Shown here: positions 11,376 to 45,012 of the stretch, piece after piece | How positions within the stretch are numbered: position 1 is the stretch's first letter | Layout: each line of letters opens with the position of its first letter | The notes under the pieces: model-generated | What the model was told of the DNA's origin: nothing | Seen by the model: only the letters and a program-made list of their open reading frames with translations | The model's database searches: none | From: Alloascoidea hylecoeti | Taxonomy: Eukaryota | DNA length: 64,000 bases | Direction of reading: 5' to 3' | Assembly: GCA_001600815.1 (NCBI GenBank) | Contig: BCKZ01000002.1 | Coordinates: forward strand, 434,001-498,000 | Position numbers and translations under genes: made by a program

Positions 11376-13757
11376 TCACTCGGAATCCGACGGTATCGAA
11401 ATGACTTCGGCCGAACCCACTTTGGCCGAACCCACTTTGGCCTCGACTTCCGAATCGCTCTCGTCCCAATTGTCCTCCAAAATCGAATTCATCAGGTAGT
11501 CATGTCGGCGATTAGCTTTCATTTTTATTATTGAGGGATCCGGAGATCCATGCAGGGTCAACGGTATCACTTTTCTCGGGTTTATGTGATATTTTTCCGG
11601 AGAGCTAGTTAATTCTCTGGTTTGCCCCTTTTTGGGTGTTATGAAAGGACTGATAATCCTGTCCGGCGGAGGTGTTTCCCGAGAAAGAGAATCGTTTATT
11701 ATCCGGAGTTTGGGCGATTTGGGTGGATCCATTAGTTTAATAGTTGTAACTTTACGCGATGCAAAATATGAAGTTATTGTTGTTTGTCCTGGTGCTAATT
11801 TCTTGCTTCTCGTTCTCGTTCTCGTTTTCGTTTTCGTGTTCGCTTTCGCCTTTAACTGTAATCTCCAATATTCTACTAAATCAGGATTTAATACTTCCAT
11901 GACAGAAACTGGTATAAATTCTTCTAATTTAGATATCTTTTTACTTTCTTTTTCAATCTTTTCATAATAACTTTGAATTTCATCATCAATTGTTTTTATT
12001 TTTGTTTCTCTTCCTCTTTCGGATTTGCTTTTCCTATTATAACTTTGATTTATCACTTTACCATTGATAAAATCTTCAATTGTTTCAACCTTTTCATTTG
12101 GTAAATAATCTTTCATTAATAAATCTGTATTTATAATTGTTTTAAAAACTGAATATTTTAATCCATATATTATTTTATCTTTAATTTCGGATTTAATTTC
12201 AATTAATTTTGATAAATATGGATCTTTTGGAATTGTTTGATTTTTTAATATATTTAATAAATAAATTAATGAAAAATGTTTTTGAAAATATAATCCAATT
12301 GGTAAATTCCTACCAAAATATTGATTTTTTTGAAAAAATTCGGCTAATAATGTTAATTTTAAATTATCAATTGTGTGTGTATTTGTTGTTGATGTAATTG
12401 AATTTGTATTACTTAAACTATATTTCCATTTTTCTTTAAAATCTAAAATTTTATCATTATTTGATATAGATGGTTTTAAATATTTCATAATTATTGAATC
12501 TGATGGGAAATCATCAATTAAATTAATATTTGATACTTTTTTACCAAATATTAATTTATTTTTTGAATAATCTTTTAAATAATTATTTATTTTAAATTTC
12601 CAATTTAATAATTCATTTTCTCTTTTTATTTTATCATCATTATCATTAATATTATTTGAAGAAATATTTGCAATTGAATAAATTTTTTCAAATTCTTTAC
12701 ATATATTAATATTATCATTTTCATTTTTATATAATGATAATTTAACTGATCTAATAATTGATAAATTTAAAACTCCTGAATGATAATCACCACCAATAAA
12801 TAGACAAATTAATAAAAAATGAAATTTATTAATTTCTTCATCTTCATCTTCATCTTCATTTTTATTTAAATGATACTTTTCTTGGAAATATTTTGAAATA
12901 TTTTGAAAATTTATTGGTGTTACCCAATTATTTGTTGGATCCTTTTTTAAAAAACTATCTTCATTATTCGAATTTAAATTTGAATTATTATTTTCAAAAT
13001 CTTCAAAATCTTCAAAATCTTTACTTTTTTTTAGTTTTTTGGAAATTGTTGCACTTGATGGTCTATCATAAATAAAATGTGAATAATTTTTTAAAATCTT
13101 ATCACCGCCAAACATTAAAACATCAGAATCATTTGTCAATATAAAATCACAAATTTTTAAATTTAATAAATTAACACATTCTGCTTCTGCTTCACCTTCT
13201 GCTTCAAAATATTCAATACCTAATATTTTTAAAATTTCTTTAACTTGTTGAATATCTTTATTAAATTTATAATCTAATCGTTTTATTTTATCTTTATTAT
13301 TATTGCTAATATTAGGTTTTGTTTTTAAATCAAATTGTCTTTTTTCCCATGGTTTATCAATACCATCAAAAACTAATATAAATCCAATATTTAATGATAA
13401 TAAATTTTTAATTCTTTGAAATATGATTTGATAAGTATGCATTTTCCAATTATTATTATTTGATGACATTTGTCCTTCAAAAAGCCACATAAAAGCATCG
13501 ATTGCTATTATCATTGATCGAGAATGTTTTGAATGGAATTCCGATGAAAGAATTGGTAATGCTTTGATTTGATAATGGTTAATATCTAAGATTAGTTATA
13601 ATGTTTATGTTTATGTTTATTAGGGAGTAAAGATGACTTACGGATTCTTGGTTCATTTGCTTCAGAAACAACATCCCAAAGACTATTAAACATATAAGTT
13701 TGTATTTAACCCATATAAAGTAAATTTTAATAAAGAAACATACTGTGAAATTCCCAT
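11376..13757 (-). CDS. YEN1: XPG/Rad2-family Holliday junction resolvase Yen1/Gen1; spliced: exons 13757-13744, 13682-13642, 13561-11376 (746 aa)
   Basis: Introns GTATGT..TAG (13743-13683) and GTAAGT..AAG (13641-13562) restore MGISHLWDVVSEANEPRIPLP...IAIDAFMWLFE. XPG motifs LVFDG, GEAEAEC, TNDSDVLMFG and GGDYHSGV are present. Confidence 0.88.
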
Positions 13758-13933
13758 TTTAAAATAAGTATATAAATGAATGGTTCTTGGGGTCGGTATT
13801 AATGATTTGGTATAAAGGAGGTTGAAAGGTTTAGTCGAAAAAATAAGTTTTCAACACAAACACACATACAAAACATAAACACAAATATAAATTTACAACC
13901 CCTCATAATAATATTTTACAACTCCTTGATTAT

Positions 13934-14530
13934 ATGAGTATCCCCAAAACATCCCATACACTATATCCCAAACGATGGCTTTTATCAACAGGTGTCCCAA
14001 ATAGTGTTTGTAACGATAAACGACGTTTTCAAAATTATAAACCATTAAAACCGAATCAAACTCCAAAATTAGTTGATGCATTTGGTGGTATTGTCCCAAT
14101 ACTTGGTATAGGTGATGTTTTAATAAAAATTTATAATTCTTATAATGAATCTTTGGAAATTTTAGTCAAAGGTGTCTTTCATATAATTGGACAAGAAAAT
14201 ATATTACAATTACATTATTTATTAAGTAAAGGTGTTGGTTTTAAATATTCAAATGATCCAAATTCATCTACAAATAAAAATTCTAATGGAAATGGTAATG
14301 ATACAAAAGGAAATGATATGGCAATGTTATTTTCAATGAATGGTTATAATTTTTTATCAGTTCCACCAAATCCTAAAAATAAATTATTTTATTTTTATGA
14401 AGAAGGTTGTGATTTTTATGATAATATACCTGAAGGAGTTCATCAGATAAATACATTATTTATTGCTGATTCGGATCAAGATGGTGATGAGGATGATGAT
14501 CTATTTTCTTTTAATGAAACAGAAAATTAA
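13934..14530 (+). CDS. Stand-alone Ty1/copia protease-like (Pol beta-barrel) protein with catalytic Asp replaced (STG)
   Basis: WLLSTGVPNSVCNDKRRF..YKPL...VDAFGGIVPILGIGDV...LVKGVFHI.G.ENIL matches the copia protease pattern WxLD(S/T)GAxxHxCxDxxxF...GxGxV...LxxVxxVPxxxxNLxS; intact 198-aa ORF. Confidence 0.7.
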   Translation: MSIPKTSHTLYPKRWLLSTGVPNSVCNDKRRFQNYKPLKPNQTPKLVDAFGGIVPILGIGDVLIKIYNSYNESLEILVKGVFHIIGQENILQLHYLLSKGVGFKYSNDPNSSTNKNSNGNGNDTKGNDMAMLFSMNGYNFLSVPPNPKNKLFYFYEEGCDFYDNIPEGVHQINTLFIADSDQDGDEDDDLFSFNETEN

Positions 14531-14608
14531 AGATATATATCAATTTATATAAAAAATAAAAATTAAATTAAATTACACATGCTAATAGATTAGATAATAA
14601 TGTTATGA

Positions 14609-16081
14609 TTATTTCAGAAATAATAAATAATCTTTAGGATCATAATCTTCATTAGATAGCAAATTAAAACACTCGATAAAATAATTTACTAATGATAACA
14701 AAGTAAATTCCATTGAATTTCTATTAACACCTTGTTGGTCGTTTATCTCAATTTGATCTTTATTTAAATCATGATTAATTAAATCAGTCCATTTTAAAAA
14801 ATTCGTTTCAATTCTTTTAATTTTTAAATTTAAATCATCATTTAAATTTTCAAATTGAATAATTGGTATATTAATTTGAATTTTATCATTAATCTCATTA
14901 TCAATTATTAATCTAATAATTAATTCTTGTAATTGATTAGATATTAATAAATTATTTTGAAATAGATTTGTTTGTAATTGAATATTATTATGTAAATCTT
15001 CTTGTTCTTCATCTATACTAGTATCTGGGGTTGTTGAGGATGATGATGGAATGATATTACATCTGATTGAATAGATTGTTTTTTCATCTGTTTTTTCATA
15101 AATTGATATTGTTTCTCCAAGGTGATGTTCAAGAGATTTCATTTCATTAATAAGTTCTTGATCGATGTGATTCTTTTTCTTTTTCTGTTTATTTTTAGCT
15201 TTGGTTTTGGGTTTCGATATATTTGAATCATTAGTTTTATTACTATTATTAGATTTATTAACTGATGGTGAAAATTTATCAGTTGATGTTGATGCAGATT
15301 TATCAGTTAATAATGAAGATCTATTATTTTTCAATTTAACAAATTTTATCGTTTCTCTTTTCTCCTCACTTAAAAATCTATCTAAATTATCATCTAATTT
15401 TTTCATCATTGTAATTAATCCATTACCTTTTCTTAATCTTCTTTTTAAAATTAATTCATTAACTTCTTTAACAATATCATTAAAACCAAAATCAATATTT
15501 AATGAATAACCTTTTGGTATATCATTATTTAATGTTGTTAATCTTACTAAATTATCATTATTTGAAGTACTTGTAGAAATATTTGAAATATTTTTTGGAA
15601 TTTTTGGATATGATGATGGTATAAATAAATTAAATTTCAATTTTGAAATATCATATGGGAAATCAGGATCAGATGGTGTTAATTCAAATAAAATTGATAG
15701 AACATCAGATTCTAAATTTATCGCATCTTGCATATGATCTTTAGATTCTATTAATTCATTTTTTAAATTTGTATAAGAAGTATAATTTATAATTTCATAT
15801 TCATTTATTTTTAATGGTTTTAAATGTTTAAAAAGTTTTGATAATTCTATTGTTCTTGCAGATAATTTTGGTTTATTTTGGTTTTGTGTTTGCGTTTCTT
15901 TGTTTTTACTTTCATTTTCATTTTTATGTTCATTTGTATTTGTATTTGTATTTGTATTTGTATTTTTATTTCTATTTTTATTTTTATTTTTATTTCTATA
16001 CCTTTTATTAGATTTATTTGACAGTTGGGGTTCTGTAGTAGTAGACATATTTGATGGTGTGTAAATGGTGATGGAACACAA
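14609..16081 (-). CDS. Conserved fungal hypothetical protein with PSDPDFP (RWD-like) motif; likely start 16048
   Basis: 490-aa ORF; FELTPSDPDFPYDISKLKFNLFIPSSYP...NDIPKGYSLNIDFGF...LDDNLDRFLSEEKRETIKFV recalls a fungal RWD-like family. Confidence 0.65.
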   Translation of the reverse strand: MCSITIYTPSNMSTTTEPQLSNKSNKRYRNKNKNKNRNKNTNTNTNTNTNEHKNENESKNKETQTQNQNKPKLSARTIELSKLFKHLKPLKINEYEIINYTSYTNLKNELIESKDHMQDAINLESDVLSILFELTPSDPDFPYDISKLKFNLFIPSSYPKIPKNISNISTSTSNNDNLVRLTTLNNDIPKGYSLNIDFGFNDIVKEVNELILKRRLRKGNGLITMMKKLDDNLDRFLSEEKRETIKFVKLKNNRSSLLTDKSASTSTDKFSPSVNKSNNSNKTNDSNISKPKTKAKNKQKKKKNHIDQELINEMKSLEHHLGETISIYEKTDEKTIYSIRCNIIPSSSSTTPDTSIDEEQEDLHNNIQLQTNLFQNNLLISNQLQELIIRLIIDNEINDKIQINIPIIQFENLNDDLNLKIKRIETNFLKWTDLINHDLNKDQIEINDQQGVNRNSMEFTLLSLVNYFIECFNLLSNEDYDPKDYLLFLK

Positions 16082-16127
16082 GAAGATTTAAACATTATAT
16101 ACAGACAAGAAATAGACCAATCAGAGG

Positions 16128-16637
16128 TCACGACTCATTTTTACTCATATCCCCCATCTTTTTAACGTTTATCAATAGTTTTCTCATCTCCAAAATCTCG
16201 TCATTTTCCTGCTTATCAGACTCATTTACATTTTCAGCTAAATTTCTATATTTTCTTTTTTTCTTCTTTTCACTACTAGATTTTTTTTCATGCTTTAATT
16301 GTTTAATTATACCTAATCTACTATTTTCAGGATCATTCAATTCTTGTAATTTCATTGCTAAGATTGATCTCGCATGTTTTCTGTTTTGATCTCTCGACCG
16401 GGTCGCCTGTGACGATACAACGATTCCTGTGGGTAAATGGGTTAATTGTACTTTACTGTTTGTTTTATTGATCTTTTGTCCTCCCTTACCACCGCCTTTT
16501 ATGAAGACTTCAGTGATTTCATCTTCATTTATTTTGGGTCGTGGAGGTAACGGATTTTTCAACAGGATTGGATTTGTGTGGAAAAGGGATTTCAGGCTAA
16601 TTATTGGTATTTTGAGTATTTTTGTGGGTTGTAGCAT
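16128..16637 (-). CDS. RSO55: Mitochondrial codon-independent peptide release factor homolog (C12orf65/MTRFR, yeast Rso55/Pth3)
   Basis: Presequence-like N-terminus, LPPRPKI.E.EI.E.FIKGGGKGGQKINKTNSKVQLTHLPTGIVV..QATRSRDQNR, basic C-tail. Confidence 0.88.
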   Translation of the reverse strand: MLQPTKILKIPIISLKSLFHTNPILLKNPLPPRPKINEDEITEVFIKGGGKGGQKINKTNSKVQLTHLPTGIVVSSQATRSRDQNRKHARSILAMKLQELNDPENSRLGIIKQLKHEKKSSSEKKKKRKYRNLAENVNESDKQENDEILEMRKLLINVKKMGDMSKNES

Positions 16638-16869
16638 TTGTGGGTTGTGTTTAATTTAGTTTACAATGATATTTACGATGATTACGATGGATCAACAATG
16701 AAAGAAATTTAAGGTCGCGAACAAGGTTTCCGGATAAGGTTTCCGAACCCGTCCGAAAAGCCCCAAACTGAGTAATTCTGCAGCTGTGATGCGTAAAAGA
16801 CGCAGCGAAACAGCTCAAGAAATCGACGATCTCCTGCTTTTCCCGACCAAAACGTCGAAAAAACCGCAA

Positions 16870-18782: not shown

Positions 18783-19989
18783 ATAACCAAAAAAAGCTTG
18801 CACATAAAGAGAAGAAAGATTTGAAAAGATTTATTATTATAGATCTAGAGTTTACATTTCTTATATTAATCCACATCTTTATCTGGATTATAGAGATTAC
18901 AAGGGAAATAAAAGATAAAAGAAAAAAAAACAATAAAAAACCAGTATAAACTTGTCCTTTCTTTTAAATATACATGTTGTTTTGAAAAAAGAATTGGTTT
19001 TCTATTTTTGTTAATTTAATGATGATTTGTATTGAGTTTAATAATTTTTAATAAAAAATTTGAATAAATTTATGACATAAAATATAAAGTGTAATTTCTT
19101 GATAAAGCTTCTAATTATAATTATTTGCCTTTAACAAAGAACATAATTAATTATGTTGAGAGTCAATTTAGGATAGAGAGTTGTAGATTTACATTGAATT
19201 ATAGGTGATGATGTATTAATCGGATCATATCTTGATATAATTAATCAAATTTAGCTTCGATTTTGAAAAACTCATGCATTTATGGTATCATGATTCATGA
19301 TGAATCATTGATGATTCTTCTTCTTACCTTCTCTCAAGTATGAACTTGTACAATTATCATAAGATTAAAAAGTATTTACGATATCTCAATGCGTACGAAA
19401 ATGAATATTAATTGATAAGGATACAAGAACATTAATTATAATGTTATCTATAGCTAATCAAAAAAAAAAATTTAAATTCCAAAGCTAGTGCTATATAGCT
19501 AGCATTGGATCAATCAATGTCAAAATTATGGGAGTCTTATTTTTTTTTTTAAAAATATATATTTGAAAAGTTGGATTATAAAAGGGTAGAACGTCAAAAC
19601 AATTACATAGAAGATCTAAATTTAAACTATTAAGGTACCGGTGATAACTTATAAGTGCATAAGTTGCTATAAACGCATAAATAGCCAGTCAGAGCAAAGG
19701 GATTTTCAGTATTTTAATAATACATGTAGGTTCCATTAACGCTCAGTACGGCTAGGATTATGTATTATCTCAACTAACAGTATCACCCTCTCTATTAGGA
19801 CAGAAACCTAGCCCCAATTAGGGTTTTTGATAGTCAATGGGAAAACTACCTCCAGAAAACCTCTGTCAGGTAGACCTGTCAAATGATTTAGAACCCACAG
19901 GAGTCTGTGCTTGACTTTTAATGAGGGTCGTCCTTTGAGAAACGTTCGGGTCAGGCTTACTGTTATATTAGATAGTAACAGTTCGGGTT

Positions 19990-21075
19990 GCTTTGTTCCT
20001 TAATTATAATAATCTTGTTGGGTACGGAATCTACCGGATTTTTATAACGTACGGCGGTTTGGATGTGTGATTCATGGAACGAACGATTTGTTTCTAAATG
20101 AGTATAAAATATAATTGAATTTGTCGGTGGAATCCTGGTCTTTTTGGTGCATTCGAAGTTGCTCATGCTCTATATGAAGACAATACTTTAAAGGGGCTTA
20201 TCATGATCACAGGTTTGGAAAATCCATTACAACTGCAATTGGAGGTTCAAATTAAAACTTATGATCCTCACAGCTAGAAAAATTTATGGTAAACATACGT
20301 GTATATGGCGAAAATAAATTTCAAAGCTTGTGAAGACAAAAAAATCATGTTTCGAAAGGCTATCACCAGTACTATCATAATGAATGAGTTGTCTTCTGTA
20401 TTCATTGCCACTATTCGAACTGCTTACACTTTCGGAAACATGAAAGGAACAATATAATCATCTCAAATCATATGCATGTGATGACAAGTCTTGATCAGTT
20501 GAGATTTTTATTAAAAACCCCACAACTTAGATTCTCATCATCAGAGGTATTGGATAAACTACCATCCCCTAAACTGTGAATATAAGAGAGATAGTAACTA
20601 CGAGATCCGGCTCGAGAAATATTTCTTCATCCCCATCTTTCATGTCAAATCGCTTTTGTTTCGACGTGAAAGAAATTTTTTACTATAGAGTTGAGCCACT
20701 GCGGTGACTGTGGGTGATAACAGCTTCATATTTGGATTCTAAAGATAAAATCTAGTGGATTAATTGGAAAGAGTCATGGAGGAGCAGATACACTGGGTTG
20801 TGGATTGGCATATAAGTTTCTTACTATGTGTGACCCATTAGTATTGTAAAGATTTGAGATTACTTAGCTAGCTTGTAGCAGAGAAAGGCCCCAGGTCTAC
20901 AGGTGCCCTAATACGGCTGGTACTTCTTCCCACTTTATCGATTTGAAATTGCTGCATCGAGTTTCCACTCATCAATATCCCAGTCTCCTATAGGATCTGA
21001 TGAAGTCATGTTCAAGATGCGAAAGATGATGTTTATGTTTATATCCTTGACTACAAAACTGAATACTTCTGTAGC
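19990..21075 (+). mobile_element. Decayed Ty3/gypsy pol relic (RT - RNase H - integrase zinc finger)
   Basis: Frameshifted fragments in gypsy order: LYM-D-NTLKG (~20170, YxDD-like), LDQLRFLLKTPQLR (~20490), SNYE..LEK...HVKSLLF (~20595-20660), IGKSHGGADTL (20763), KDDVYVYILDYKT (~21022). Confidence 0.5.
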
Positions 21076-22189
21076 CGAATATGTTGAAAGAATGATGCTC
21101 TTTTTCTACGCTACATATATAATTTCCTGACTACAAACAATTTAATTAAGGAAATCACTCAAAGAGTGAAACGTATTCTTATTTATAAAACTTTATATTT
21201 CTTAAGCTTTTTCTTCCCTTTTTGACAAGATTATTTATAGTTTTAAATTTTTTTTTATTGCTTGAAATGTGCCCATATTAAAGTTTCCCAGTTTATTTCA
21301 TTTAACTTTTGTGACGGTGGTCCTTGCTGATAATGTGCGTATCTTATACTCTTTAATTCCTATGCCTTGTCTATAAATTGTGCCTTCTCTTCTATATTTT
21401 TTTCCTTTGATTTCTAAAAAAAAGGTACCGGTATAGTTGATAAAGTTCTAAGTGCCTGTTTCTCCCAGTTACCCCCAAAAAGCTAATTGGCCTCTTGTGA
21501 ATTGTTCTAAGGGTGGTATAATATCCAACATAAGCTGTAAAAAATATTAATTGTAGGTCAATGTTCTGTAGTCTTTGAGTTAATAATCAAAAGAGAAAAG
21601 ACAACGTCAAAAAAAATCACCAAGACCTCGAACCACAAATTTTCAAGATAATTAACCGACATTAATAATACTTCATATAGCCTAGAATATACTATTCGAC
21701 TGAAAGTATCGCATTCATTTTCAACTCCTTAAGCCTTCATTTCATCATCCAGCTATAGCGCTGCGGTGAACGTTCATTATAATTTAATTTAAACACATCA
21801 CCATCTTTTAATAATGATAATCTAGTAAGTCGTTCATGCTAGTTATTTCGTATTAATAACTCATTCTTATGATTTTATATATTCTCCTCCAACAAAGTTC
21901 GTGCTGTTGACTAGTTGTGGCCATTTTAGACATCCTTAAACTTCCAGCCATGCAGCCCTCATCTTGTTCAAAATAAATATGTGGAACTCTAAAGCGCAAT
22001 ACCTATAAGTATGATCATCTCTGGAAATCCTGCAGCTGAGATTAAACCTATAGCTATTGTTATATAGATCCAATATACCTTTCCTCTTAAAATGCTTTGC
22101 TTTGCTCTTTGGCCATGGGCAGTTGAAAAAAAGAAGCTTCTGCAGCCGGCCATCATAATTAAGTATGATTACACGTTAATGAAACGCTA

Positions 22190-22740
22190 GTACCATTGGT
22201 TAGGATGATGTCAGCCACCCTTCGTAAGAGGGAAAATTAATATTCAAAAGGCAAGCTTAATTTTATCGAATGTTGGATTGAAACCTAATTATAGCATGTT
22301 AAGCTTTAGAGAAATATTCGAAAGACTGCAGCTCGTATATTATGTCCCTTACAAGTCTGGACTCTGTAGACTAAAAAGCGTTTGGCCATAGAAAAGCCAT
22401 ATGTATGGTCACTGGTCAGTAACAACCTCTTGAGCTTTCAGAAAATAGATCTTATTACTAAGAGAAAAGAGCACGTTTTAAAAAATTGATTAATGCACAT
22501 GAATAAAATTTTGCCAATTTATGTGGGCAGTTGTATCTCGCGATCCCTAGATCGACTATCGCAATTTCTCCTATAACTGAATCTTCCACAAGTTACAACA
22601 AAAATTGGTAATACATTATAATAAGATATAGAAACAATCTTAGGTGATCCATTATAGACCAAGCAACATTGATTGGGTATATCAGAAACCCAAATGATCG
22701 CGACATTGTAATAAAGCTTAGTTATAAGAAATATGCATCA
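22190..22740 (-). mobile_element. Decayed Ty1/copia RT-end/RNase H relic
   Basis: YPINVAWSIMDHLRLFLYL (cf. P...HW.A.KR.LRYL), DR..TT, IF*KLKR (cf. ISWxSKKQ), SKA*HAIIRFQ..IR (cf. TKHIDIRYHFIR), VADIILT, all in correct order. Confidence 0.6.
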
Positions 22741-23165
22741 AAAGAGAAATATAAATTTCCCAAAAAGCAATATTAGAGGGTCAAACAACAAATGTGGATA
22801 ATAATGGATGTGTGCATTATGCAAAAATATTCGAATTCTTCAAAAATATGGGGAGATTCTTTTAATTATGTAAAATGTTCAAATTAATAATTATGTAAGA
22901 AATAAATGTAAAAAATAACAAATGCAATATAAGATCTTATATGTATATTATGTAGTGTAACATACTATTTTTCTTGCGACCAGCGAAAATAGCCCTTATA
23001 TAACTTATAGGTTCATATAATATGTAAAACCCACAACTTATTATTCTTGAAACAGGCCTGGGAATAATACTTTTTTTCCAAAAATAAACTGTATAATTAT
23101 ATGGTCAACTTTTCATTTAAAATACACACGAACTACTTCCGGAAACATGCAAAATAATATACAGA

Positions 23166-23216
23166 TACTGTATTTTCACTTAATATCGGACACTTGAAGC
23201 ACTAAATATTCTGACA
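23166..23216 (+). repeat. Dispersed repeat copy 1; probable pogo/Tc1-mariner terminal inverted repeat
   Basis: 44/51 identical to 41606-41656, including a 24-bp exact core TTTTCACTTAATATCGGACACTTG; starts after TA. Confidence 0.7.
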
Positions 23217-23438
23217 TGTGATGAAATAATATTCGGACATGTTTTCGAAAATTCGGAGGATTATTCTCCGGAAATTACCCAAAATCTTTCTTTTTCAAAA
23301 ACCATAATTAGTGGAAATGTCCGATTCTAACTTTCTTTGTAAGTAACAATTTAAAGTTCTTATTCCATATCTTCTATTTAGATCGAAAACCGCCACAGAA
23401 AAAAAAAATAAGAACCCAAAAAAAAGCAAAAAGGAAAA

Positions 23439-23510
23439 CTCCGATACGGGGAATCGAACCCCGAACTGCCCGGTGAAAGCGGACCGTGCTAGCCGTTACA
23501 CTATATCGGA
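23439..23510 (-). tRNA. tRNA-Glu (anticodon TTC), intronless
   Basis: TCCGATA-TA-GTGTAACGGCTAGCAC-G-GTCCG-CTTTCAC-CGGGC-AGTT-CGGGG-TTCGATT-CCCCG-TATCGGA-G; full cloverleaf with oligo-T terminator downstream. Confidence 0.98.
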
Positions 23511-23795
23511 AACAATTGTTGACCAAATCCAAGGGGTGGCCGTCATAGTCGTCTATGGCTTTCAGTTAACCAAATTTGGGCCTATATTAAAGATTAGGGT
23601 CGTAATAAACTTCTACCTAAGGAAGAAACTGAGATACATGAAAGACAAGACATTCTATTATATCAGTATCAACTTTACACATTCCCAGGTTTACTTACAC
23701 TATCATAAATTATATATTATATAATTTCTTTTTTATGTAGGTTTAAAAAACATAAATAAACAAAATACATTGATATGATATAAGCAAATGAAGGT

Positions 23796-23969
23796 CTATT
23801 CACATGCACATTCAAGATCTACTTCATCCGAATTATCCTTATTCATTATGTCCTTTACATTCATAAGCCTATTGAATGTTTCGATTTTCTTGACTCTTTC
23901 TGAAAGATCGACGACTTGTGGACCAAGACTATTGGCCGTATATCTACTTGTTGATTGTTTATCTTCCAT
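23796..23969 (-). CDS. Candidate small protein, 57 aa (below ORF-track cutoff)
   Basis: MEDKQSTSRYTANSLGPQVVDLSERVKKIETFNRLMNVKDIMNKDNSDEVDLECACE; good start context (agaATGG); host-like codons. Confidence 0.4.
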   Translation of the reverse strand: MEDKQSTSRYTANSLGPQVVDLSERVKKIETFNRLMNVKDIMNKDNSDEVDLECACE

Positions 23970-26900
23970 TCTAATTATCTTATTTACAGTTATTAATACC
24001 TTTAGTTCGTGTATTAATTAATATAAATATGTTGATAATATTGATGTTAAAATTTAGTATTGAAGTAGTGGAGTCTAAATATCTATCGAACTATCATATA
24101 TATTGTTGTGTCAATTTGCACTGACTTGATTGGTCAATATAATTTTATTTTAGAAACTTTTAATTGTATAAGGTGAACTTTAACATGATACGATAGTGCC
24201 ATTTATAACTTATATTGTATGTTTTCCCTATTCGGATCTGAAATTGGAATATACTCTTTCGTCAACCTGGAAGTAAGATTCCGGTAAAACAAAAAGTATC
24301 AGTATTATGAATAATAATATCTCGACAATGTAAAAGTAGAATTAACATTAATATTATCTAGCGCTGATCAATTGTAACTTCTACAATTACTATTCATAGT
24401 TATATACATGTATAGCTATAAAGCTATTGTACTTGTAAGGTTATAAACTTATATAGTTAGGGTTATATAGGCCTATATGCTATAAATTATAATCTTCACC
24501 CAGCAAATATATATAATCTTGTATACATTGTTATGTATTAGAAAGCAAGGTTAAAATAGAGTAATACTATACTATTATAATGTTAGCGTTATATTATAAT
24601 TATGAAAATTTTATATTTAAACCCATGGCCATTATATTGTGAAGTCATCTCAGAAGTAGTTATCCTTATATATTAATATAATTATATTAATTAATAACAT
24701 CCGATGGAGGTGAATGTTAATGGGTTCCCAGTGGAATTAGTACCTTTCTAGATCTATAGGCTATACATCGACTACACAATGTACATAATATTTTCTCCTT
24801 TGTTTAGATCTAGAAGATGATAGAATATCAAAGAAAAGGTTAGAAATAATAGAAATTGTACGAGGTACAACATATATACCATATATATTGATTTGTAAGG
24901 TCTTATAATTAAAACCGCCAAAACTAACTTAGGTTGGTACGAATATATAAGTTATAGCTTTTGATGCAGCTGCTTATAAATTTGTATGTATTCCATTATT
25001 TCCATACATAATTAACCCTACACCTGATCTTGTGAATTCAAGTTTTGTAGACAATGAAACCGGAAATAGGCGTTACTCCAGTATTTTGTAAAAACAAAGC
25101 TTAATGTTGAAGATTGAAGCATTGAAGATAGTGAGTTGTATGTTTTCAGGATGTCTTAAAGGTAAAACAAACATAAATAGTAATCATAACATATGAAATA
25201 TACAGTATGCGTGAAAATATCATGAAACTTAAAATACATACCAGTTATAGGAGAATTAGTGATCGCGATACATACTGGCCGTGGTAGACTCACGATCAGA
25301 CTAGTAGCTAATATTAATAGCTATGGTACTAGGCCTATGGTTAATATTATGCTATTTTTAATTGTTGGTAGCTGCAGTCATCTGTTTATATAAATGCTTT
25401 ATCCAACCGCCGACCTTGTTGTTGACTTTTTATTCTAATTTCTGTTTTTCTTGAAGTTCTTTATTTTTTAGAATTCTAGAAGCAAGAAGACAATTTGTTG
25501 GATTCCATAAAATCACGTAGCATAATATTTTAAGTAGGATAATTTTAATATAGGTTTATTGTTTAATTTGTAATATTTTGTATTAAAAATGGTATAAATT
25601 TTTTCAGTTGCAGAGTTCAATAATGTTGATTTTTAGGCATAACAATTATATAATTGAATTTCATGAATTCGACTCCACATATCATATAATTTGAAGCTAT
25701 CTTACAGCGGTGCATTTCATCGATTCCTTTTCAGCTCTCTCATACGATTACATAAGATGAGCGTGATAATATATTCATCATGATTTTTAGGTCACATGAT
25801 CGTATCTGTCATCCAATCCTGATCAGTAGGTTTTGTAGTAGTAAAATTACTGCATACCAAAAACGTTTGATCTCACAAATTTAGAGTAACATAGAATATA
25901 AATACATATAATCATTAGCTTTAGAATGGAAAACAATTATCCATCGTAAATTTTAAACAAGGAATTCCGTCTATGTCAAACTGGAATTAAATGTTAGCTT
26001 GTTTCAGTAGAAATTTAAGATTTGGGTATCTTAGATCTGAGATCTTAAGCTTATAATTACATAGCACGGATTTTCCCCATACAGGGTCATACTCCGAAAA
26101 TATATAGAATTGGATCATTAAGGATTGGAATTCAAGTAAGATAATGGGAAGGATTTTTAATTGATTTAAATTATAAACGTGAAATGGAACTTTTGTGTAA
26201 ATTTTGTGACCTTTCAACGAACTTTCATAATATTATGTGGCTTTTATGATTAAAAATAAATACAATTACATACTTATAACATACGTATATATTAATATTA
26301 GTACTAATAAGTAAACAATTGTAAGTCAAACTTATAAATTTTATATATGTATACCGATTTCCCCACCTTATATAATTGCAGGCTAACTATAGGCTAAACC
26401 ACAGAAGAAATATCGTCTATTACACCAACTACGGCTAAGCCATTGATTGGTAAAATTTCTCCTATACAGGAGAAGGATTTTTAGTTCCCCTCATGATACC
26501 ATTCTGTTGACATGGTTTGATAAAAGGTCGGCAGTGATTATTTGTAAATCTGATTGGTTTGTCCTAATTAAGTAGTCAAAAAATTAAAAAAGATAACCGT
26601 GGTTCCCATTCTGACAATTTATAGAATGATACAATCAAAAATATTTGAGAAACAGATTAATAAAATAAAATTTAAAAGAAAGAGGAATTGCTAAAAACAT
26701 TATACAATTGCAATTATAATTAGATGAATTTTTCATTATAACTTGCTTATAATCATCATGCATGTTTATTTATGCAAACCACGACCACGACCGCGAATAC
26801 GATGATGATGATGAAGAAATATATCGCGCTCTGTTTCACAATATTAAAATATGAATAACTAATCTACTGTAAGAAATTGAGATCAAGATCATCTCATGTG

Positions 26901-28101
26901 ATTAGGTAAAATTTCATCAATTATTTAATGTATAACAATGATATAAACTGGTGACTTTCTAAGAAGTGAATGTACTTGAAATACAACTATGTAGTAAATG
27001 TATCAGGCACTTAAGCTTAGATAATAGAATTCTATATTAAGCTAAACTTTGAGTGCTTTAAAACTAATACTACCACTATACATGTACAGCATAAGAGGTT
27101 TGCTTTCCTTCGTAAAATCGGCGTCTTTCTAAGGGGGTTTTAATTCTTGCGTATATGTAAAAATGTAATTATAGGAGAGATCTGGATATTGACATAGTGG
27201 TGCGACACTCTCAAGTGCCATCCAGTCAAGGTGTTATAAATAATATATAGCGACATCAATGGTGTATGGTATGAAATTCCGTAAAGCGTAATTATATTGA
27301 GATGTGGAGCAGATGAGCCAGAACATTGGGGCTCCACTTCTTGCTCTTAATATCAGATGATCATCACAAACAAGAGAAAGTAGCCTTAAGCTTCCATTTT
27401 TTACCAGAGAATTCTGTTTTGAAATCTGAAGTTACCAACATCGGAAGCCAAGGAATATAATATTCCGCGGCCAGTTACTGCTCCTGCGCGGCTAACAGCA
27501 CATTGCGTATAGACACTGAAAAGTTTTATAATTTTCAATTACATGAGTTGATTATAATTATTAAAGCATGCTGGAATCCTCCAGAAGAGAGTGCCTTTCA
27601 TATTAATCCAACACGGGGATAATTGATGATTGATCAGTGTCCAGTGGATAGATCAACATCATAAAGTTTCTGTCCGTAGTAGGCGTATGACCCCAGCTCT
27701 AAGCTAGGATGCTGCTAGGATTTCGACAAAGTATAAATATGATTCTTTCATGGGATTATCTGATACATGTAGTATTATATTATTCTCTGGATCTTCTTCA
27801 ATCCACACAATTTGAGGATTAATATTAATTACTGGTTTCAAACGTTTGATTGCTGCAAATCACTCAAAACGGGTCTTGCATACCCAACAGTCCCAATGGG
27901 CCTGTTATCCAAAAATATATTACCTCATCCGATGACTCGCAGCACAAGGTTTCTGGAAAACAAAATTTAAAAATCTTTTTTTTTTCTGCAGTTTCATATT
28001 AAAAGGGCTGTTATCTCTCTTTCTTCCTTCTTTTCCTTTCCTACTTCCTTTCACAATATTGTGTCTCCGTCTCAAAAATTCATCTCGATTTTTATCTCTA
28101 G

Positions 28102-36086: not shown

Positions 36087-38570
36087 CTTGGGAGAAAGAG
36101 AATGGAGAGTAGATTATTCAATGGATTGTGTGTAGCATCTTATAGTAAATTTTCAGTTATCTAACAATTGTAATAACTAAATTCAAAGACATATGCATTA
36201 TCCCGTTTACATGGATATTTATAATTGGCTGTTTTATTGCAGTTGTTAATCGATTTTAGCCTTGATATCTATATGCACATATATGAATATAATATATGCA
36301 TATTACCGTTATCGATTATAAATGTTGCTAATTATAATGATGTTGTAGTCTTAAATTTATTATCTAAGAAAATATCCCATGGCCAGATCTAGATGATTTA
36401 ATCTGGTTCAACTCTCTATATACATGTATATATTTGTCATTTTATACATAATTATGACATTAATCTTAGTATTCATATATATATATTCACCGGTACCTAG
36501 TAAACTAGTAGGTGTTGAGTTCTACTATTCTGAAGTTAGAATAAATTTTGAAAATGGTAATTATTGTTAACAATATAGATTTAATACTATTATATATATA
36601 TATATGTGTTTCAAAAGTTATTTAATACTTTCAAATTCAAATTGTCCACATGCTATAAATATGCTTATACCCACAGCAAAGCATTCATAAGTATAGGTAC
36701 AATATACAATTGCAATACTATCGTTCGAACTTCGAACCATATGGGCCCACGCATTACGCATGTGTCTACCAATGGCAACTTTACAAGTACAATATTGGTA
36801 ATAAATGATCTCTATAACCTACGTACATACAGCGCTCGATATTTACACTATGTTATATATATAGCTGAGATTATAACTAATTAAATAGATATCTCTTATA
36901 TGTAAACGGATATACACAGCTATTAGCTGTAGACACTAAAGAGTCGGTTGGTTATCTATATATATGATAGATCTAGCTATAGATCTAACCTAATGGCGGC
37001 TATAGATTCGAAGATACGGCACTTAAGATCAATCTTATTATTATAATCAGGCTAATATGGAACCATAAATCAAAATGAAAGCTGAATTATATATCAACGC
37101 ATGTGTCGCGATCGTCACAAGCAGCTCTGCAAGGGAAGACGGGCCGCCGTACAAAAATATAGATTATACATGTCTCAGTTAAAACATCTTTAATTTTCTT
37201 TATCGGGTTAGCACATTTCATTTATGTAGACGTATACGTAATTCTTATTTAAGGCGGTGTTTATTAACACTGGACTCTGGTTAATTACATTAACTAAAGC
37301 GTAAATTTGCGCGTAAGATTGACTCTGCAGTTATAGATGATAAACTGATAATATTAATATTCCATAACGATATGTTGTAGGCTCTATAATTATATAATAA
37401 GTCAAGAACCCCACTCGAAAATTATACTCAAGTTTCGATACTTGAGTAACAAATCATCAGTATTTTGAATATTAAACATTCGGCAATGTAGATAAATATA
37501 GAGAATAATTATCACCAAATATAGTCTCAGAATACTCTGATTTCATGATTATCAGTCATCCCCATATATAATTTCGGTAACGTTATTGCCGGTATGTCCT
37601 ATTAATATGCACTATCTATTATGCAGGGATAAGGAATAACTGTATGGAAGAAAAAATGAAAATTATCTTGGTCATGATCTTAAATTAAAGTTACGAAAAA
37701 TAATGTTGACATTTTGCTCTGTAATGTGAACTATTCGTCAAATTGAATTGGAATTACTAGTGCCGAGACATTGAATAAATAATCGATATCATGTGACGTG
37801 TGGGAAACACAAACCCGAGAGAAATCTATACATGAATTTATAAGAAATTTTGATTTATTTTAGAGGAGGGAGGTTTTTTAAAGGGAAATCAGATATTGAA
37901 GTTATTAGCCTTTGACAAGTGGCTTCTTTAATTATAACATTTCGTTGATTTGAACTGAAAATAGACAAGTCGTGATTGAAGACAAGTTTCAGGTAGTTCA
38001 TTGAGTTTTCGACCATACGTATACAGACATATTAGTGAGAGTCTGTGTTTTCTTCTGTTAGTTGTTTTTCTCTTTTTTCATTTAGAATCATCCTAAACAT
38101 CACATGTAATGCTTAACCTGACTGGTGTAGAAATGTTCCAGCAGTCAAGCCAAAAAATATCGTCATCTGGATTACTAATTTTCATTATCTACCGGTATCT
38201 GAATTTTGAGTAATAAATTTTGGTATCATATGCAAGATAAATTTAAAACTCAATGGAGATCATATTTGGCCTTGTTAACTTATTGTGCACTGATTCTGAA
38301 TAAAGTGATCCTTTATGGCTGGTTTTTTTAGCAGAAAGACTTATTTTTTGTTTTTTCGTTTTTTATAAAGTTATTTTTTTCTCTTTTTTTATTATTTAAT
38401 AAATTCAATTATCTTTTATTTTTATATTTTACATTTTTTATTTTTTTAGATTTATTTTTTTGAATTTTTATAATTTCTAAACTCTGAATTATTTTTGGAT
38501 TTTTAATATTTTCTAATGTCAATGGTGTACTGTTTTGTATATGATTTAAAGCATTATATTATTATTATTA

Positions 38571-39083
38571 TTATTGAGAGTAGGGATGCCTCCCTTTGTA
38601 ACGCTTTTTATTGCGATTGAATGTAGAAATAGTTTTGGAGATGTGTATAGCTTCTTTTAATTCGGCATCACTATCATTATCCGATGACTGTTTTTCCAAA
38701 GATTTATCATATTCAGCAACATTATCAATTTCATGAGCATTAACAATTTCCTCATCAGTTTGTGAACGAAGCTCATGAAGCGATGTTGGAAAGGCTGAAA
38801 ACATATGATGTGTCGGAGGATGAATTTCGTATTTAGAAGAATTGGCTTGGGGGTGCAAACAGGCGTTATTATCAAATACATCCACCAATATTCTTGAATA
38901 TCCCTTAAAAACTATCCGGAGTGGATTTAAGACTTCTAAGAGGGGGAAAGCACTCATAACACATAATTCCCCTAAGATAACGAAGAGAAATGCTTGTCGT
39001 GAGATTGGTGCTGCTGAGCTGAATACACTAAGTCGGAGAAACTCTACAACAGAAAACACAAAAAGTGTATATTGAAAAATCAT
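38571..39083 (-). CDS. Hypothetical membrane protein (orphan)
   Basis: 170-aa ORF with two N-terminal hydrophobic segments, an acidic middle and a basic tail; followed by A-rich 3' region. Confidence 0.55.
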   Translation of the reverse strand: MIFQYTLFVFSVVEFLRLSVFSSAAPISRQAFLFVILGELCVMSAFPLLEVLNPLRIVFKGYSRILVDVFDNNACLHPQANSSKYEIHPPTHHMFSAFPTSLHELRSQTDEEIVNAHEIDNVAEYDKSLEKQSSDNDSDAELKEAIHISKTISTFNRNKKRYKGRHPYSQ

Positions 39084-40071
39084 TATCAGAATTACGAGAT
39101 TAAATAGATTTTAGTGATAGTATTAAATTTAATTTATATTAGTTGTTGGTTAAGAAAATGGTGGTTGAAAATACCAATTATGTTGTGTCCGGAATCCTAG
39201 TACCGTCCGACCCTGACGGTACGTATATGCATATGTGTATTAATACTAGTTATCCTTCTATCTTACCGTAATAGTTATCGCTAAAAGAATAAATCTAAAT
39301 CTGTTAAAGATAAAACTTTACAATTTCATTCCAACTTCCAAACCATCGTAAGGTCGTCAATATAAGTTTAAACTCACCAAAGATAACATAGTATGTGTGT
39401 GTATATACCATATATCTTCAGCTTATTTTTTGATTTAATATTGCAACTAAATTAAGATCTTTCACTAAACGAAGGTTAACTTTGTATCAGACTTTATTTA
39501 AACCATTTATTCACTTTTATGCCTATAACCCTACATGTAATCTCGTTTTTGTTTAAGATGACTTTAATAATAATATAAATTTTACACGAATAAATACTTC
39601 CAAAGGAATATGCGATAAAGAAGTATTCATTAAATCAAATTTGATAATATCATATAAAGTAAGAAGGTCGGTACGGCAAAGCGAATCTTTGCATGAGTTC
39701 AAAGAGCAAATGCGATATAGTTTTCATCATTGTCCTTTGGGTACGGGCCCAAACGTCACCTACCTCGGTACACCAACTTTTTTTCACAACCAAAAACAAA
39801 AATATTATAAATTGCATTCATGAAGTTATTGGGGTATAACTTATAAAACAATTCTCCATTACTTACGTTTGTATACTGTATCAGGAATCTTAGGATGGAT
39901 GTGCAGAATTTAGTAAGCTTAAGCATTAATCATGACAGATAGCTGGTGTAGGTACTGGGCAGTTTGTGGGGAATTTCATAGAGAAAATGTGAGATAAATA
40001 TAGAGAGAACATTGTTATGGTATCTATGGATAGCCAACAATCTAAAAGGGTGTTATAACTGGTCAATCGGA

Positions 40072-40296
40072 CTAGAGTTTGACATTGATATTTGGTATTA
40101 AAACTGAAGCTGCGGAAATGGGTTTGGTAAGCATCACTTCTATACGTTTATTGCTCACTCTATGTACATATAATGGTTTTGTGCAATTGGATTCATGAAC
40201 TTCTTCCTCCAATGATGAGCTTCTTCCATTCTGTTCATGAAGCCAGGCATTAAACTTGTCTTCAGTTGTATTACTTGTTGCTATTGTCGACACCAT
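40072..40296 (-). CDS. Candidate small protein, 74 aa
   Basis: ATG-initiated ORF with TATATAAA about 70 bp upstream and a pyrimidine-rich (CTCTTGT)n tract further upstream; no family recognised. Confidence 0.3.
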   Translation of the reverse strand: MVSTIATSNTTEDKFNAWLHEQNGRSSSLEEEVHESNCTKPLYVHRVSNKRIEVMLTKPISAASVLIPNINVKL

Positions 40297-41605: not shown

Positions 41606-41656
41606 TACAGTCTTTTCACTTAATATCGGACACTTGGTGGACTAATTATTCAGACA
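41606..41656 (+). repeat. Dispersed repeat copy 2; probable pogo/Tc1-mariner TIR (TA|CAGT...)
   Basis: TACAGTCTTTTCACTTAATATCGGACACTTG...; 44/51 identical to 23166-23216. Confidence 0.7.
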
Positions 41657-41989
41657 CTCGGTCATTCGGGGTTTCCAATAGAGTATATTAGTAAACACCC
41701 CTATATATAGAAGGTCACTTATCTACTCGGTTCGGGTAAAGGTCCGATTACTTTATTCTAAAGACAATGGGGATAATTTTAATGAAATATGAAATATACC
41801 ATCAGTAATTACCGGGCCATCCAAAATTGAAATTGCTTTCTAACCACGAATTGCAATAGCAGAAACAAATATAAATTATTAGAAATAGTATTACAAAATC
41901 TACTTAATCCTATAAATCTGATACTATATATTCGATATATTTTTTTTGTAAATCTTGTTGTAGCTATAGTGCGAGCGGTATTCTACGAT

Positions 41990-44769: not shown

Positions 44770-44792
44770 CGGCAAAACGGCAAACCGGCAAA
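44770..44792 (+). promoter_or_regulatory. Three tandem CGGCAAA motifs at exact 8-bp period upstream of the ECM13-like gene
   Basis: CGGCAAA at 44770, 44778 and 44786; TATAAAA near 44886. Confidence 0.45.
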
Positions 44793-45012
44793 TCTATGCA
44801 GGACAAAATGTACTCGCATGCAGTGTCGGCAACTTAAAATTGTGTTCCACCCGGATCTACCATAGCGAAAGAAAAAATAATGTTTTATAAAAGTAGCCCT
44901 GTCCCCATAAACAAATTAATTATAAATTTTTACTCTATTCCTTTTTAAGAAAAGTCTCGAGATATTTAACGCAGTCTCGCCAATCATAACAAACGGATAA
45001 ATAAAGGACCAG

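Follow-up and report, generated by a model that had tools for sequence, protein, structure and literature searches.

A stand-alone Ty1/copia-type protease domain without its catalytic aspartate, beside a Yen1-like gene in Alloascoidea hylecoeti

Layout of the locus and isolation from retroelements

In the window, which is the whole 64-kb stretch of DNA analyzed here, an intact ORF lies between two host genes (Table 1). The sequence-only reading of this DNA had described an intact 198-aa ORF, with spacers of 176 bp to the ATG of YEN1 and 78 bp to the next stop codon. These features were recovered exactly (ATG at 13757 on the minus strand, stop at 14609). On the upstream side, the frame of the ORF is already closed by in-frame stops before its ATG. 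The start context is poor, with a T at position -3, where 9 of the 15 other genes of the window carry an A.

Table 1. Features of the locus, in window positions.
Feature	Position	Strand	Extent	Basis or remark
Yen1/GEN1-like XPG-family nuclease gene	11376..13757	-		two small 5' introns
Divergent spacer, ORF and Yen1-like gene	13758..13933		176 bp	sequence
Stand-alone ORF P0001	13934-14530	+	198 codons, ATG to stop	ORF listing and translation
Pol_BBD / retropepsin-like beta-barrel core	13976..14233	+	aa 15-100	Pfam PF22936 and AF2 model
Degenerate triad S18-T19-G20 (TCA ACA GGT), at the D-S/T-G place	13985..13993	+		sequence, alignment
Asn-rich low-complexity insertion	14249..14317	+	aa 106-128	gap in 7/7 copia relatives
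Acidic C-terminal tail	14444..14527	+	aa 171-198	10 D/E, zero K/R
Convergent spacer, ORF to stop of the 479-aa gene	14531..14608		78 bp	GC 0.128
Convergent neighbor, Asn/Lys-rich host gene	14609..16048	-	479 aa	stop at 14609

The divergent neighbor matches the Pfam family XPG_I with 57.1 bits, and its longest PDB matches are the GEN1 proteins of Chaetomium and human. Its 5' exons were assigned by eye: the ATG-containing exon is followed by a GTATGT...AG intron, a small exon at 13682-13642, a GTAAGT...AG intron and an exon starting at 13585. The spliced N-terminus reads MGISHLWDVV...IIAIDAF. No Pfam family was found for the 479-aa convergent neighbor. Even the closest homolog in the databases shares only 25% identity with it, over 74% of the query, indicating that this lineage is poorly sampled in databases.

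The divergent spacer contains a TATA-like word, TATATAAA, at 13769-13776(+). Such words occur 188 times in the 64-kb window, about once every 340 bp; therefore the one at 13769 provides only weak circumstantial evidence. The word CACAAAT, which had been singled out as an MSE-core-like motif of the shared promoter, is indeed present at 13880-13886(+), but its significance as an MSE did not hold. The MSE core CRCAAAW has 46 matches in the window where 49.8 +/- 7.6 would be expected; a count of 46 was reached in 73 of 100 shuffles. As this motif occurs at chance frequency, the idea of meiotic co-regulation through an MSE was rejected. A scaffold co-regulated with the resolvase, as had been suggested, is likewise unsupported, its MSE argument standing at chance level.

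The sequence-only reading had also stated that the locus offers no room for LTR, gag, IN or RT. The spacers, a repeat search and probes with copia sequences all agree with this statement. None of these four element parts was found at the locus, where the flanks are taken by the two host genes, and apart from low-complexity tracts the search revealed no LTR-like direct repeats of at least 60 nt. Seven copia gag-PR probes matched this ORF alone in the whole window, where the ORF has no paralog either. No other retroelement Pfam domain was detected in the long ORFs of the 64 kb or in 386 stop-free segments of at least 35 aa from its gene-poor regions, a set from which remains of fewer than 35 codons between stops escape. 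Thus, the retroelement pieces full of stops and frameshifts that had been reported elsewhere in the window were not reproduced.

Copy number was also assessed outside the window. The protein cluster of the ORF has one member, on one contig. In two data sets of the species, X3 and X4, contigs run uninterrupted from the ORF into the 479-aa neighbor, the X4 contig beginning inside the Yen1-like gene, and contig depth at the ORF equals that of its neighbors. Over 5.3 kb, X3 departs from the window at 4 sites, all outside the ORF, and X4 shows no difference. Since both data sets are identical within the ORF, polymorphism is uninformative on selection. By protein cluster, window and both data sets, the ORF is single-copy at a fixed locus and detached from any element.

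A copia-type protease domain with a lost active site

The ORF protein matches the Pfam family Pol_BBD (PF22936) over residues 15-100 with 30.1 bits (cut-off 27, E 6e-7), covering profile positions 1-80 of 81. This is the sole Pfam family found for the protein at E<=10, and its feature neighbors in the Atlas are Pol_BBD clusters (score 0.94). The residues shared with copia gag-PR fragments comprise W15, G20, the G58-I59-G60 hairpin, V81 and N89. The copia protease pattern noticed by eye in the sequence is therefore upheld by a Pfam match above the gathering score.

Structure prediction, which had been proposed as a check, pointed to retropepsins. In the AF2 model, aa 13-103 form a core with pLDDT of about 65-90, while the mean is 55 and aa 104-198 fall below 50; in a second AF2 run on aa 8-170, aa 100-170 were again below 50. 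VIA-align of the model core against 48,161 chains gave Ddi1 RVP (Z 6.9) and the proteases of EIAV (6.8), FIV (6.4) and HIV (6.3). Ddi1 RVP and retroviral proteases fill ranks 1-8 and 10-12 (Z 4.9-6.9); the one exception among the first 12, at rank 9, is a plasmepsin of the pepsin type. The best match, the T. gondii Ddi1 RVP 7d66_B, aligned over 98 residues with an rmsd of 3.0 and 9% identity, at a modest Z of 6.9 that falls in the range of common arrangements. With Foldseek, 46 of the 50 best entries contain a retroviral protease, and no match reached E<=1e-3. Sequence searches of the PDB gave no significant match: the family profile touched ASPRV1 as its sole family (E 0.2), and the single ORF sequence reached HIV protease (E 1.1). 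Altogether, the ORF protein has Ty1/copia-type protease-domain ancestry and a retropepsin-like fold, with absolute fold scores that are modest.

Retropepsins (family A2/A11 peptidases) assemble their active site from two subunits that contribute one Asp each. At the corresponding place in the ORF, codon 18 is TCA (13985-13987), followed by ACA and GGT, so that the D(S/T)G triad reads STG. This had been noticed in the sequence and is borne out by alignment A3, in which the ORF shows W-L-L-S-T-G-V-P-N-S where its relatives have W-I-x-D-S-G-A-T-S-H. DSGA is kept in all 7 aligned relatives, against S18-T19-G20-V21 in the ORF, and the change of the loop from DSGATSH to STGVPNS affects 6 of 7 positions. 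No D or E occurs in residues 15-27 around the psi-loop. Because TCA differs from the Asp codons GAT/GAC (GAY) at all three positions, the loss of the Asp is no fresh point lesion. Since the loop of the active site is largely replaced, its catalytic Asp included, the protein cannot function as an aspartic protease.

Coding signature and candidate explanations

The base composition of the ORF by codon position (GC1/GC2/GC3 = 0.412/0.302/0.095) is similar to that of local host genes, and CTG codons are absent. A codon model gave the ORF +0.405 bits per codon in its own frame, whereas the five remaining frames scored between -0.27 and -1.33. For reference, 15 host genes ranged from -0.05 to +0.40, and 17 non-coding controls free of stops from -0.51 to +0.10. 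The host-like codon use claimed earlier was thus confirmed, the score lying at the top of the host range. All three sub-segments of the ORF scored positive, including the Asn-rich insertion (+0.641) and aa 129-198 (+0.447 bits per codon). At local composition, the chance of an open frame of 198 codons is about 1e-8, and gene-poor DNA (28.2 kb, six frames) has no stop-free run longer than 125 codons. When neutral decay was simulated with substitutions only (2000 runs per identity level), the frame stayed open in 33/2000 runs at 80% aa identity, in 1/2000 at 60% and in 0/2000 at both 45% and 32%. This neutral-decay argument is weakened because a parent lineage missing from the databases, and not age, may account for the distance to the copias found there. 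GC periodicity, codon score and simulation are single-sequence proxies of constraint, distinct from dN/dS. As judged by these proxies, the ORF has the coding signature that host genes under constraint typically show.

Relatives of the protein in databases are few and distant, all of them copia gag-PR fragments. No orthologs were found in about 15 billion proteins, a collection in which this lineage is poorly sampled. Although these sequences include the ORF's own protein, none of the others is closer than 30-33% identity. A search for proteins of similar length returned only the ORF's own protein. At E<=1e-3 among 1.84 billion representatives, three proteins were recovered, namely the query and two copia fragments 30-33% identical to it, and a profile search retrieved 8 proteins, all of them ordinary Pol_BBD with DSGA. 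When metagenomes were scanned with this protein and with the Yen1-like one, pattern matches came up, none of which was confirmed. Two metatranscriptome runs from the study that produced X3 yielded three short low-complexity pieces and none, respectively; they leave the ORF uncovered and are uninformative either way.

The ancestry, the fold, the dead site, the isolation from any element and the constrained-gene coding signature thus stand as results. What they make of the ORF is, with a chance we put slightly above even, a lineage-restricted exapted pseudoprotease: a single-copy, stand-alone host gene whose product would bind rather than cut. The sequence-only reading had suggested such a co-opted pseudoprotease. 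Because ancestry, fold, loss of the Asp, absence of the other element parts and host-like coding combine, co-option is the best, still tentative reading.

According to this exaptation model, the gene would descend from an old Ty1/copia-type retrotransposon of which everything but the protease domain has been lost. The protein comprises a basic beta-barrel of retropepsin type (aa 13-103), an Asn-rich loop in the style of the host (aa 106-128), a stretch modelled with low confidence (aa 129-170) and the acidic tail (aa 171-198). It keeps the barrel, together with the Thr-Gly that belongs to the 'fireman's grip' of the dimer. The protein may pair with itself or with another retropepsin subunit, and its groove may hold an extended peptide without cutting it. 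Expression would presumably be driven from the 176-bp divergent promoter shared with the Yen1-like gene.

The main competitor, which we consider possible though clearly less probable than exaptation, is a functionless relic, all that is left of a copia insertion after decay or truncation, with a frame that is unselected and still open since it is young or lucky. A relic would suit the absence of known orthologs, the poor start context with its T at -3 and the strong degeneration of the active-site loop, which loss of function would lead one to expect. Its parent lineage may be unsampled, as the 25% identity of the neighbor's best match illustrates. Moreover, since a resident element would already share the codon usage of its host, host-like codons by themselves are no proof of host selection. 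Against a relic, the element has been stripped down to 176 bp and 78 bp of flank, yet one single domain keeps its ATG, its stop and an open frame of 198 codons, even though about 9% of random codons in this DNA are stops. GC1>GC2>>GC3 and the top-range codon score extend along the whole ORF, the slippage-prone Asn-rich tract included. The exchange of Asp for Ser needs three base changes, so that inactivation is not recent, and a closely related copia protein from any source is absent from databases that do contain the ORF's own protein.

A special case of exaptation, which we regard as unlikely, is a restriction factor acting as a 'poison subunit'. The dead subunit would combine with the protease of a resident Ty1/copia element into half-dead dimers, and both Gag-Pol processing and particle maturation would be blocked. 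The one-Asp-per-subunit architecture of retropepsins would permit this, and the ORF retains the barrel and the Thr-Gly that follows the lost Asp. A precedent exists in HIV, where engineered defective protease subunits reportedly inhibited maturation in trans (literature of the 1990s). Yeasts turn Ty-derived proteins against Ty elements, namely p22/p18 and the exapted DRT2, both Gag-derived (PMC4599808, PMC8458377, PMC13709905). On the other side, the target is unseen, with no other retroelement domain in 64 kb, and the nearest protein among about 15 billion sequences is 30-33% identical. Since the nearest copia proteases are so distant, it is doubtful that the ORF protein would match the dimer interface of a target. 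In addition, a free protein would have to enter the assembling particle without a Gag part as carrier. The dominant-negative block of copia maturation that had been put forward is unsupported, with no copia target in the window or among close database matches.

Two further explanations are very improbable. A protein that is still an enzyme, with a re-tooled site (Ser18/Thr19 or an acidic residue elsewhere) and non-canonical cleavage, would profit from the retained fold and from Ser/Thr as potential nucleophiles in principle, but residues 15-27 hold no D or E, 6 of the 7 DSGATSH positions are changed, and no retropepsin is known to function when its Asp dyad is missing. Just as implausible is a piece of something larger, either an exon of a spliced gene or a missed part of a full retrotransposon: splicing does occur locally, in the Yen1-like gene with its tiny exons and short introns, but host genes lie 176 bp and 78 bp away, in-frame stops precede the ATG, and nearby signal of gag, IN or RT is absent in every frame.

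Comparison with known systems

The closest known system is the protease of Ty1/copia (Pseudoviridae) Gag-Pol, PF22936, with which the ORF shares the profile match over the full domain, the barrel and a set of residues. It differs from this protease by STG in place of DSG, by standing alone, by its Asn-rich insertion and acidic tail, and by an identity of 30-33%. The ORF does not encode an active retropepsin, as the catalytic Asp of D-S/T-G-A is replaced by S18. Nor is it an LTR retrotransposon copy, intact or decayed, since flanking LTRs and remains of gag, IN and RT are absent.

Ddi1/Rngo is the best structural match to the ORF product; Ddi1 is itself a protein of the host, with a retropepsin barrel that forms dimers. 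Ddi1 keeps its D[S/T]GA site and carries UBL, HDD and UBA modules. A Ddi1-like shuttle protein was rejected for the ORF, which shows only Pol_BBD at E<=10 and lacks the Asp; the sequence identity is 9%.

Host genes derived from Gag are well known, such as p22/DRT2 in yeast and Arc and PEG10 in animals. Active proteases of the Ty3/gypsy type are also known as host genes, represented by ASPRV1 and the Ddi1-like fold. The mammalian ASPRV1/SASPase, PEG10 and RTL1 resemble our case in being host genes that stem from protease regions of LTR retroelements. Their origin is of the Ty3/gypsy type and their active D-S/T-G site is kept (PMC7212762, PMC11402058). In contrast to these domesticated proteases, the ORF is copia-type and catalytically dead.

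In yeasts, DRT2 is described as an exapted Ty1' gag relic that persisted as a host gene when the remainder of its insertion decayed (PMC13709905). The likeness to our locus lies in the proposed evolutionary scenario of a relic ORF at a fixed host locus amid a decayed element. The p22/p18 proteins are Ty1 Gag-derived restriction factors of Saccharomyces (PMC4599808, PMC8458377). DRT2 and p22/p18 are capsid (CA-CTD) fragments that bind Gag, whereas the ORF is a fragment of a protease domain with no visible target. The ORF therefore does not belong to the Gag-derived Ty restriction factors, its domain being protease-derived. The iRhoms are pseudoproteases in which a protease fold without catalysis acts by binding (PMC6451368). 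They share the concept with the ORF; fold and biology are unrelated, and the comparison is an analogy only.

In the literature surveyed, as far as its texts were available, we found no report of a stand-alone, catalytically dead copia-type protease kept as a gene, and no report of a protease-derived domesticated gene in budding yeasts. A host-encoded dead retropepsin of a budding yeast that blocks particle maturation, either by heterodimerizing with element proteases or by clamping their cleavage sites, is an improbable outcome; if true, this 'poison subunit' would be the first protease-derived retroelement restriction factor, compared with the known Gag-derived ones. Should the ORF be a mere relic, it would still be a useful example of the time for which one domain can persist in very AT-rich DNA after its element has gone. 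Provided that the ORF is expressed and conserved, it would offer a tractable transposon-born pseudoenzyme and a direct test of the dead subunit as a defence against transposons.

Locus and neighbouring genes

The window is very AT-rich (GC 20-39% in 2-kb bins) and has the look of budding-yeast DNA, in that introns are short (GTATGT/GTAAGT), spacers compact and proteins Asn-rich. Its base composition is sharply heterogeneous: the 8-10 kb and 12-16 kb bins have 20-21% GC versus 30-39% elsewhere, and the Pro/Ser/Ala-rich N-terminus of a septin-like 871-aa ORF falls in the 10-12 kb bin, at 38% GC, the rest of that ORF being Asn-rich and AT-rich.

The range singled out by the sequence-only reading, 13758-14608, is exactly the interval between two flanking genes, a divergent Yen1-like gene and a convergent gene encoding a 479-aa protein. 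ORF listing and translation gave one ATG-to-stop frame between 13757 and 14609, the intact 198-aa ORF described earlier (hereafter, the ORF). When the minus strand was read by eye, the 5' end of the Yen1-like gene appeared to resolve into a 14-nt exon 1, a GTATGT intron, a 41-nt exon 2 (13682-13642) and a GTAAGT intron, followed by the long ORF. These exons lie within 13585-13757(-); the introns, of approximately 60 and 56 nt, end in AG and have an ACTAAT branch-like site. The spliced N-terminus, MGISHLWDVV...IIAIDAF, is normal for XPG. An ORF caller would start this protein at an internal Met (13514), losing the conserved MGISHLWD N-terminus. Since the spliced start is the ATG at 13757, the divergent spacer measures 176 bp, as previously stated, and the 78 bp between the ORF stop and the stop of the convergent gene (14609) were also correct. 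The 479-aa protein displayed only partial matches, at 25-39% identity, some carrying a CHY zinc-finger domain.

The CACAAAT word noted earlier as MSE-core-like is indeed present in the divergent spacer, but the MSE core CRCAAAW occurs at chance frequency in the window (46 observed versus 49.8 +/- 7.6 expected), and the argument was discarded as uninformative. The word TATATAAA lies 12 bp from the ATG of the Yen1-like gene, too close to serve it; similar words are frequent (188 in 64 kb). A T at -3 of the ORF ATG, versus A in 9 of 15 other genes, counts mildly against strong translation.

Coordinates of the features discussed (window positions)
Feature	Position	Strand	Remarks
Yen1-like XPG-family nuclease gene	start ATG 13757	-	Pfam XPG_I 57.1 bits; longest PDB matches Chaetomium and human GEN1
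TATATAAA	13769-13776	+ (ORF strand)	158 bp upstream of ORF ATG
CACAAAT	13880-13886		
ORF	13934-14530	+	198 codons
479-aa gene	14609-16048	-	Asn/Lys-rich; no Pfam family found
Gene-poor stretches	18800-28100 and 36090-45000		about 9 kb each without ORF of at least 150 aa
tRNA-Glu	23438-23511	-	only Rfam/tRNA match in the gene-poor stretches
60S acidic ribosomal protein exon	53001-53207	+	segment Pfam scan; area empty in ATG-ORF listing
Ribosomal protein L13e	53676-54323	-	segment Pfam scan; area empty in ATG-ORF listing

A copia-type protease domain with a dead active site

Pol_BBD (PF22936) is the Pfam family for the beta-barrel protease domain that Ty1/copia polyproteins contain. It was the sole Pfam family found for the ORF at E<=10 (E 6e-7; 30.1 bits for a curated cut-off of 27 bits), residues 15-100 matching positions 1-80 of the 81 in the profile, which bears out the copia protease pattern recognized earlier. 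Language-model neighbours in the ESM Atlas were also Pol_BBD clusters (score 0.94). Exhaustive HMMER searching of 1.84 billion representative proteins returned only three at E<=1e-3; besides the ORF's own protein, these were the copia gag-PR fragments P0002, at 30% identity, and P0003, at 33%. A profile built from these three proteins gave 8 matches in all, 8/8 with Pol_BBD.

In the 8-sequence alignment, the motif W-I-x-D-S-G-A-T-S/C/Y-H, present in 7/7 relatives, reads W-L-L-S-T-G-V-P-N-S in the ORF. The catalytic Asp is replaced by Ser18 (codon TCA, 13985-13987), confirming the STG triad of the sequence-only reading. Six of the seven positions of the active-site loop are altered, and residues 15-27 contain no acidic residue. 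No position of TCA matches either Asp codon; therefore the Asp loss was not a single recent mutation. With the catalytic Asp absent, the ORF product cannot be an aspartic protease. The barrel (residues 1-105) is basic (13 K/R versus 6 D/E) and is followed by an Asn-rich loop found in none of the copia relatives. The last 28 residues form an acidic tail (10 D/E, 0 K/R) with the C-terminal end ...DEDDDLFSFNETEN.

The AlphaFold2 model built from the 8-sequence alignment had a mean pLDDT of 55.4; residues 13-103 were predicted as mostly beta (pLDDT ~65-90), and residues 104-198 scored below 50. Remodelling residues 8-170 alone did not change this result. Foldseek found no match to this model in the PDB at E<=1e-3; however, 46 of the best 50 PDB entries include a retroviral protease (e.g. 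XMRV 3sm1, E 0.052; RSV 1bai, probability 0.99), with target-normalised TM-scores of 0.41-0.54 for the HIV, FIV and SIV enzymes. VIA-align 2 ranked the T. gondii Ddi1 RVP first among 48,161 representative chains (Z 6.9, rmsd 3.0, 98 residues), followed by the proteases of EIAV (Z 6.8), FIV (6.4), HIV (6.3), HTLV (6.2), RSV (6.0), foamy virus (5.7) and XMRV (5.5); because Z below 8 may mean common arrangements, the fold argument is based on these uniform top matches together with Pfam, not on the score alone. Taken in this way, Pfam and structure prediction, the check proposed earlier, point to a retropepsin fold. Sequence searches of the PDB were non-significant (HIV protease, E 1.1 with the ORF; ASPRV1, E 0.2 with the family profile).

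By both Pfam and fold, the ORF belongs to the Pol_BBD family. It lies outside the active retropepsins, lacking their Asp, outside the Ddi1-like proteins, lacking accessory modules as well as the Asp, and outside the Gag-type restriction factors.

Isolation and coding signature of the ORF

The earlier claim that no room is left for LTR, gag, IN or RT also held. Besides the proximity of the host genes, no direct repeats of at least 60 nt were detected apart from low-complexity tracts, and seven copia gag-PR probes matched at 13934-14242 only. With flanks free of element parts, the ORF is not a retrotransposon copy. Within the window it has no paralog, the next tblastn match being at E 1.1. The other retroelement pieces "full of stops" reported earlier were not reproduced: no retroelement Pfam domain was found in 386 stop-free segments of at least 35 aa from gene-poor regions (45 + 150 + 150 + 41) or in long ORFs, a scan that pieces under 35 codons would escape. 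Ribosomal protein L13e and an acidic P-protein were what the segments yielded above threshold; the long ORFs matched ordinary host families.

The two gene-poor stretches gave no above-threshold Pfam match in stop-free segments of at least 35 aa. Such emptiness is unusual in a compact yeast genome and may reflect heavily spliced genes, decayed DNA or structural regions. Ribosomal protein genes were found in an ORF-empty area, and thus at least some gene-poor DNA holds spliced or short genes.

The protein cluster of the ORF has one member, from one contig. The locus is also carried by a wood-decay metagenome (X3) and by another sample of the same organism (X4). In both contigs the ORF and the 479-aa gene are joined without a break, and that of X4 also starts inside the Yen1-like gene; depth at the ORF equals that of the flanks, and there are zero differences within it. 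The data sets listed for the locus included no RNA run. Over 11376-16700, X3 differs from the window by only four single bases in 5.3 kb (13566, 14740, 16131 and 16219), so that identity of the ORF in X3 is uninformative on selection. This near-identity indicates that the organism occurs in a wood-decay habitat.

Several single-sequence tests agree on the ORF as a constrained gene. Given the base composition of the region, the probability that a random codon is a stop is ~0.09, giving ~1e-8 for 198 open codons; the longest stop-free run in 28.2 kb of gene-poor DNA (six frames) was 125 codons. Periodicity is as strong as in neighbouring genes (GC1/GC2/GC3 0.412/0.302/0.095; for comparison, e.g. 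479-aa gene, 0.281/0.254/0.092; 1032-aa gene, 0.412/0.337/0.135). Under a codon model with 15 other window genes as training set, the ORF scored +0.405 bits/codon when read in its own frame, versus -0.27 to -1.33 for the remaining five. Host genes, scored leave-one-out, ranged from -0.05 to +0.40, and 17 stop-free non-coding segments from -0.51 to +0.10. The claimed host-like codon use thus stands, at the top of the host range, and all parts are positive (barrel +0.27, Asn-rich tract +0.64, C-terminal part +0.45). As the ORF has no CTG codons, it reads the same under the standard code and the yeast alternative code.

The core observation is real and more than chance. The main rival to a retained gene is a functionless relic, which we regard as possible but doubtful. 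When neutral decay was simulated with substitutions only and an AT-rich equilibrium as endpoint, an open frame survived to 80% amino-acid identity in 33 of 2000 runs, to 60% in 1 of 2000 and to 45% or 32% in none of 2000; the 30-33% identity observed is the distance to database copias, and the ORF's own parent may belong to an unsampled lineage. Moreover, host-like codons would already be expected in a resident element, which limits the constraint argument. Protein and metagenome searches found no orthologs of the ORF, which carries little weight in a lineage so clearly under-sampled that the best homolog of the 479-aa protein shares just 25% identity across 74% of it.

Possible role of the ORF protein

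A more specific idea put forward earlier is that the dead subunit pairs with copia protease and blocks particle maturation. It is mechanistically reasonable, since each retropepsin subunit supplies one Asp and yeasts turn Ty-derived Gag fragments against Ty. Such fragments include p22/p18 and the exapted DRT2, as described in excerpts of PMC13709905. However, there is no visible target: the window holds no other retroelement domain, and no database protein is closer than 33% identity. We consider this role improbable.

The closest known scenario is that of DRT2, a single ORF retained from a decayed Ty1-family insertion (excerpts of PMC13709905). The mammalian domesticated proteases ASPRV1 and PEG10 are described in excerpts of PMC7212762 and PMC11402058 as being of Ty3/gypsy-type origin with DSG kept. 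Among the entries listed by full-text literature searches, none reported a budding-yeast domesticated gene of protease origin, or a copia-type protease that is dead yet retained as a gene.

Altogether, co-option is the best-supported reading of the ORF, drawn from one species and from indirect signs of constraint. If expressed, its protein would be an exapted pseudoprotease serving as a binding module for a putative partner. Its ability to dimerise by way of the retropepsin interface may have survived, because the Thr-Gly next to the lost Asp is retained, and it may hold an extended peptide without cleaving it.
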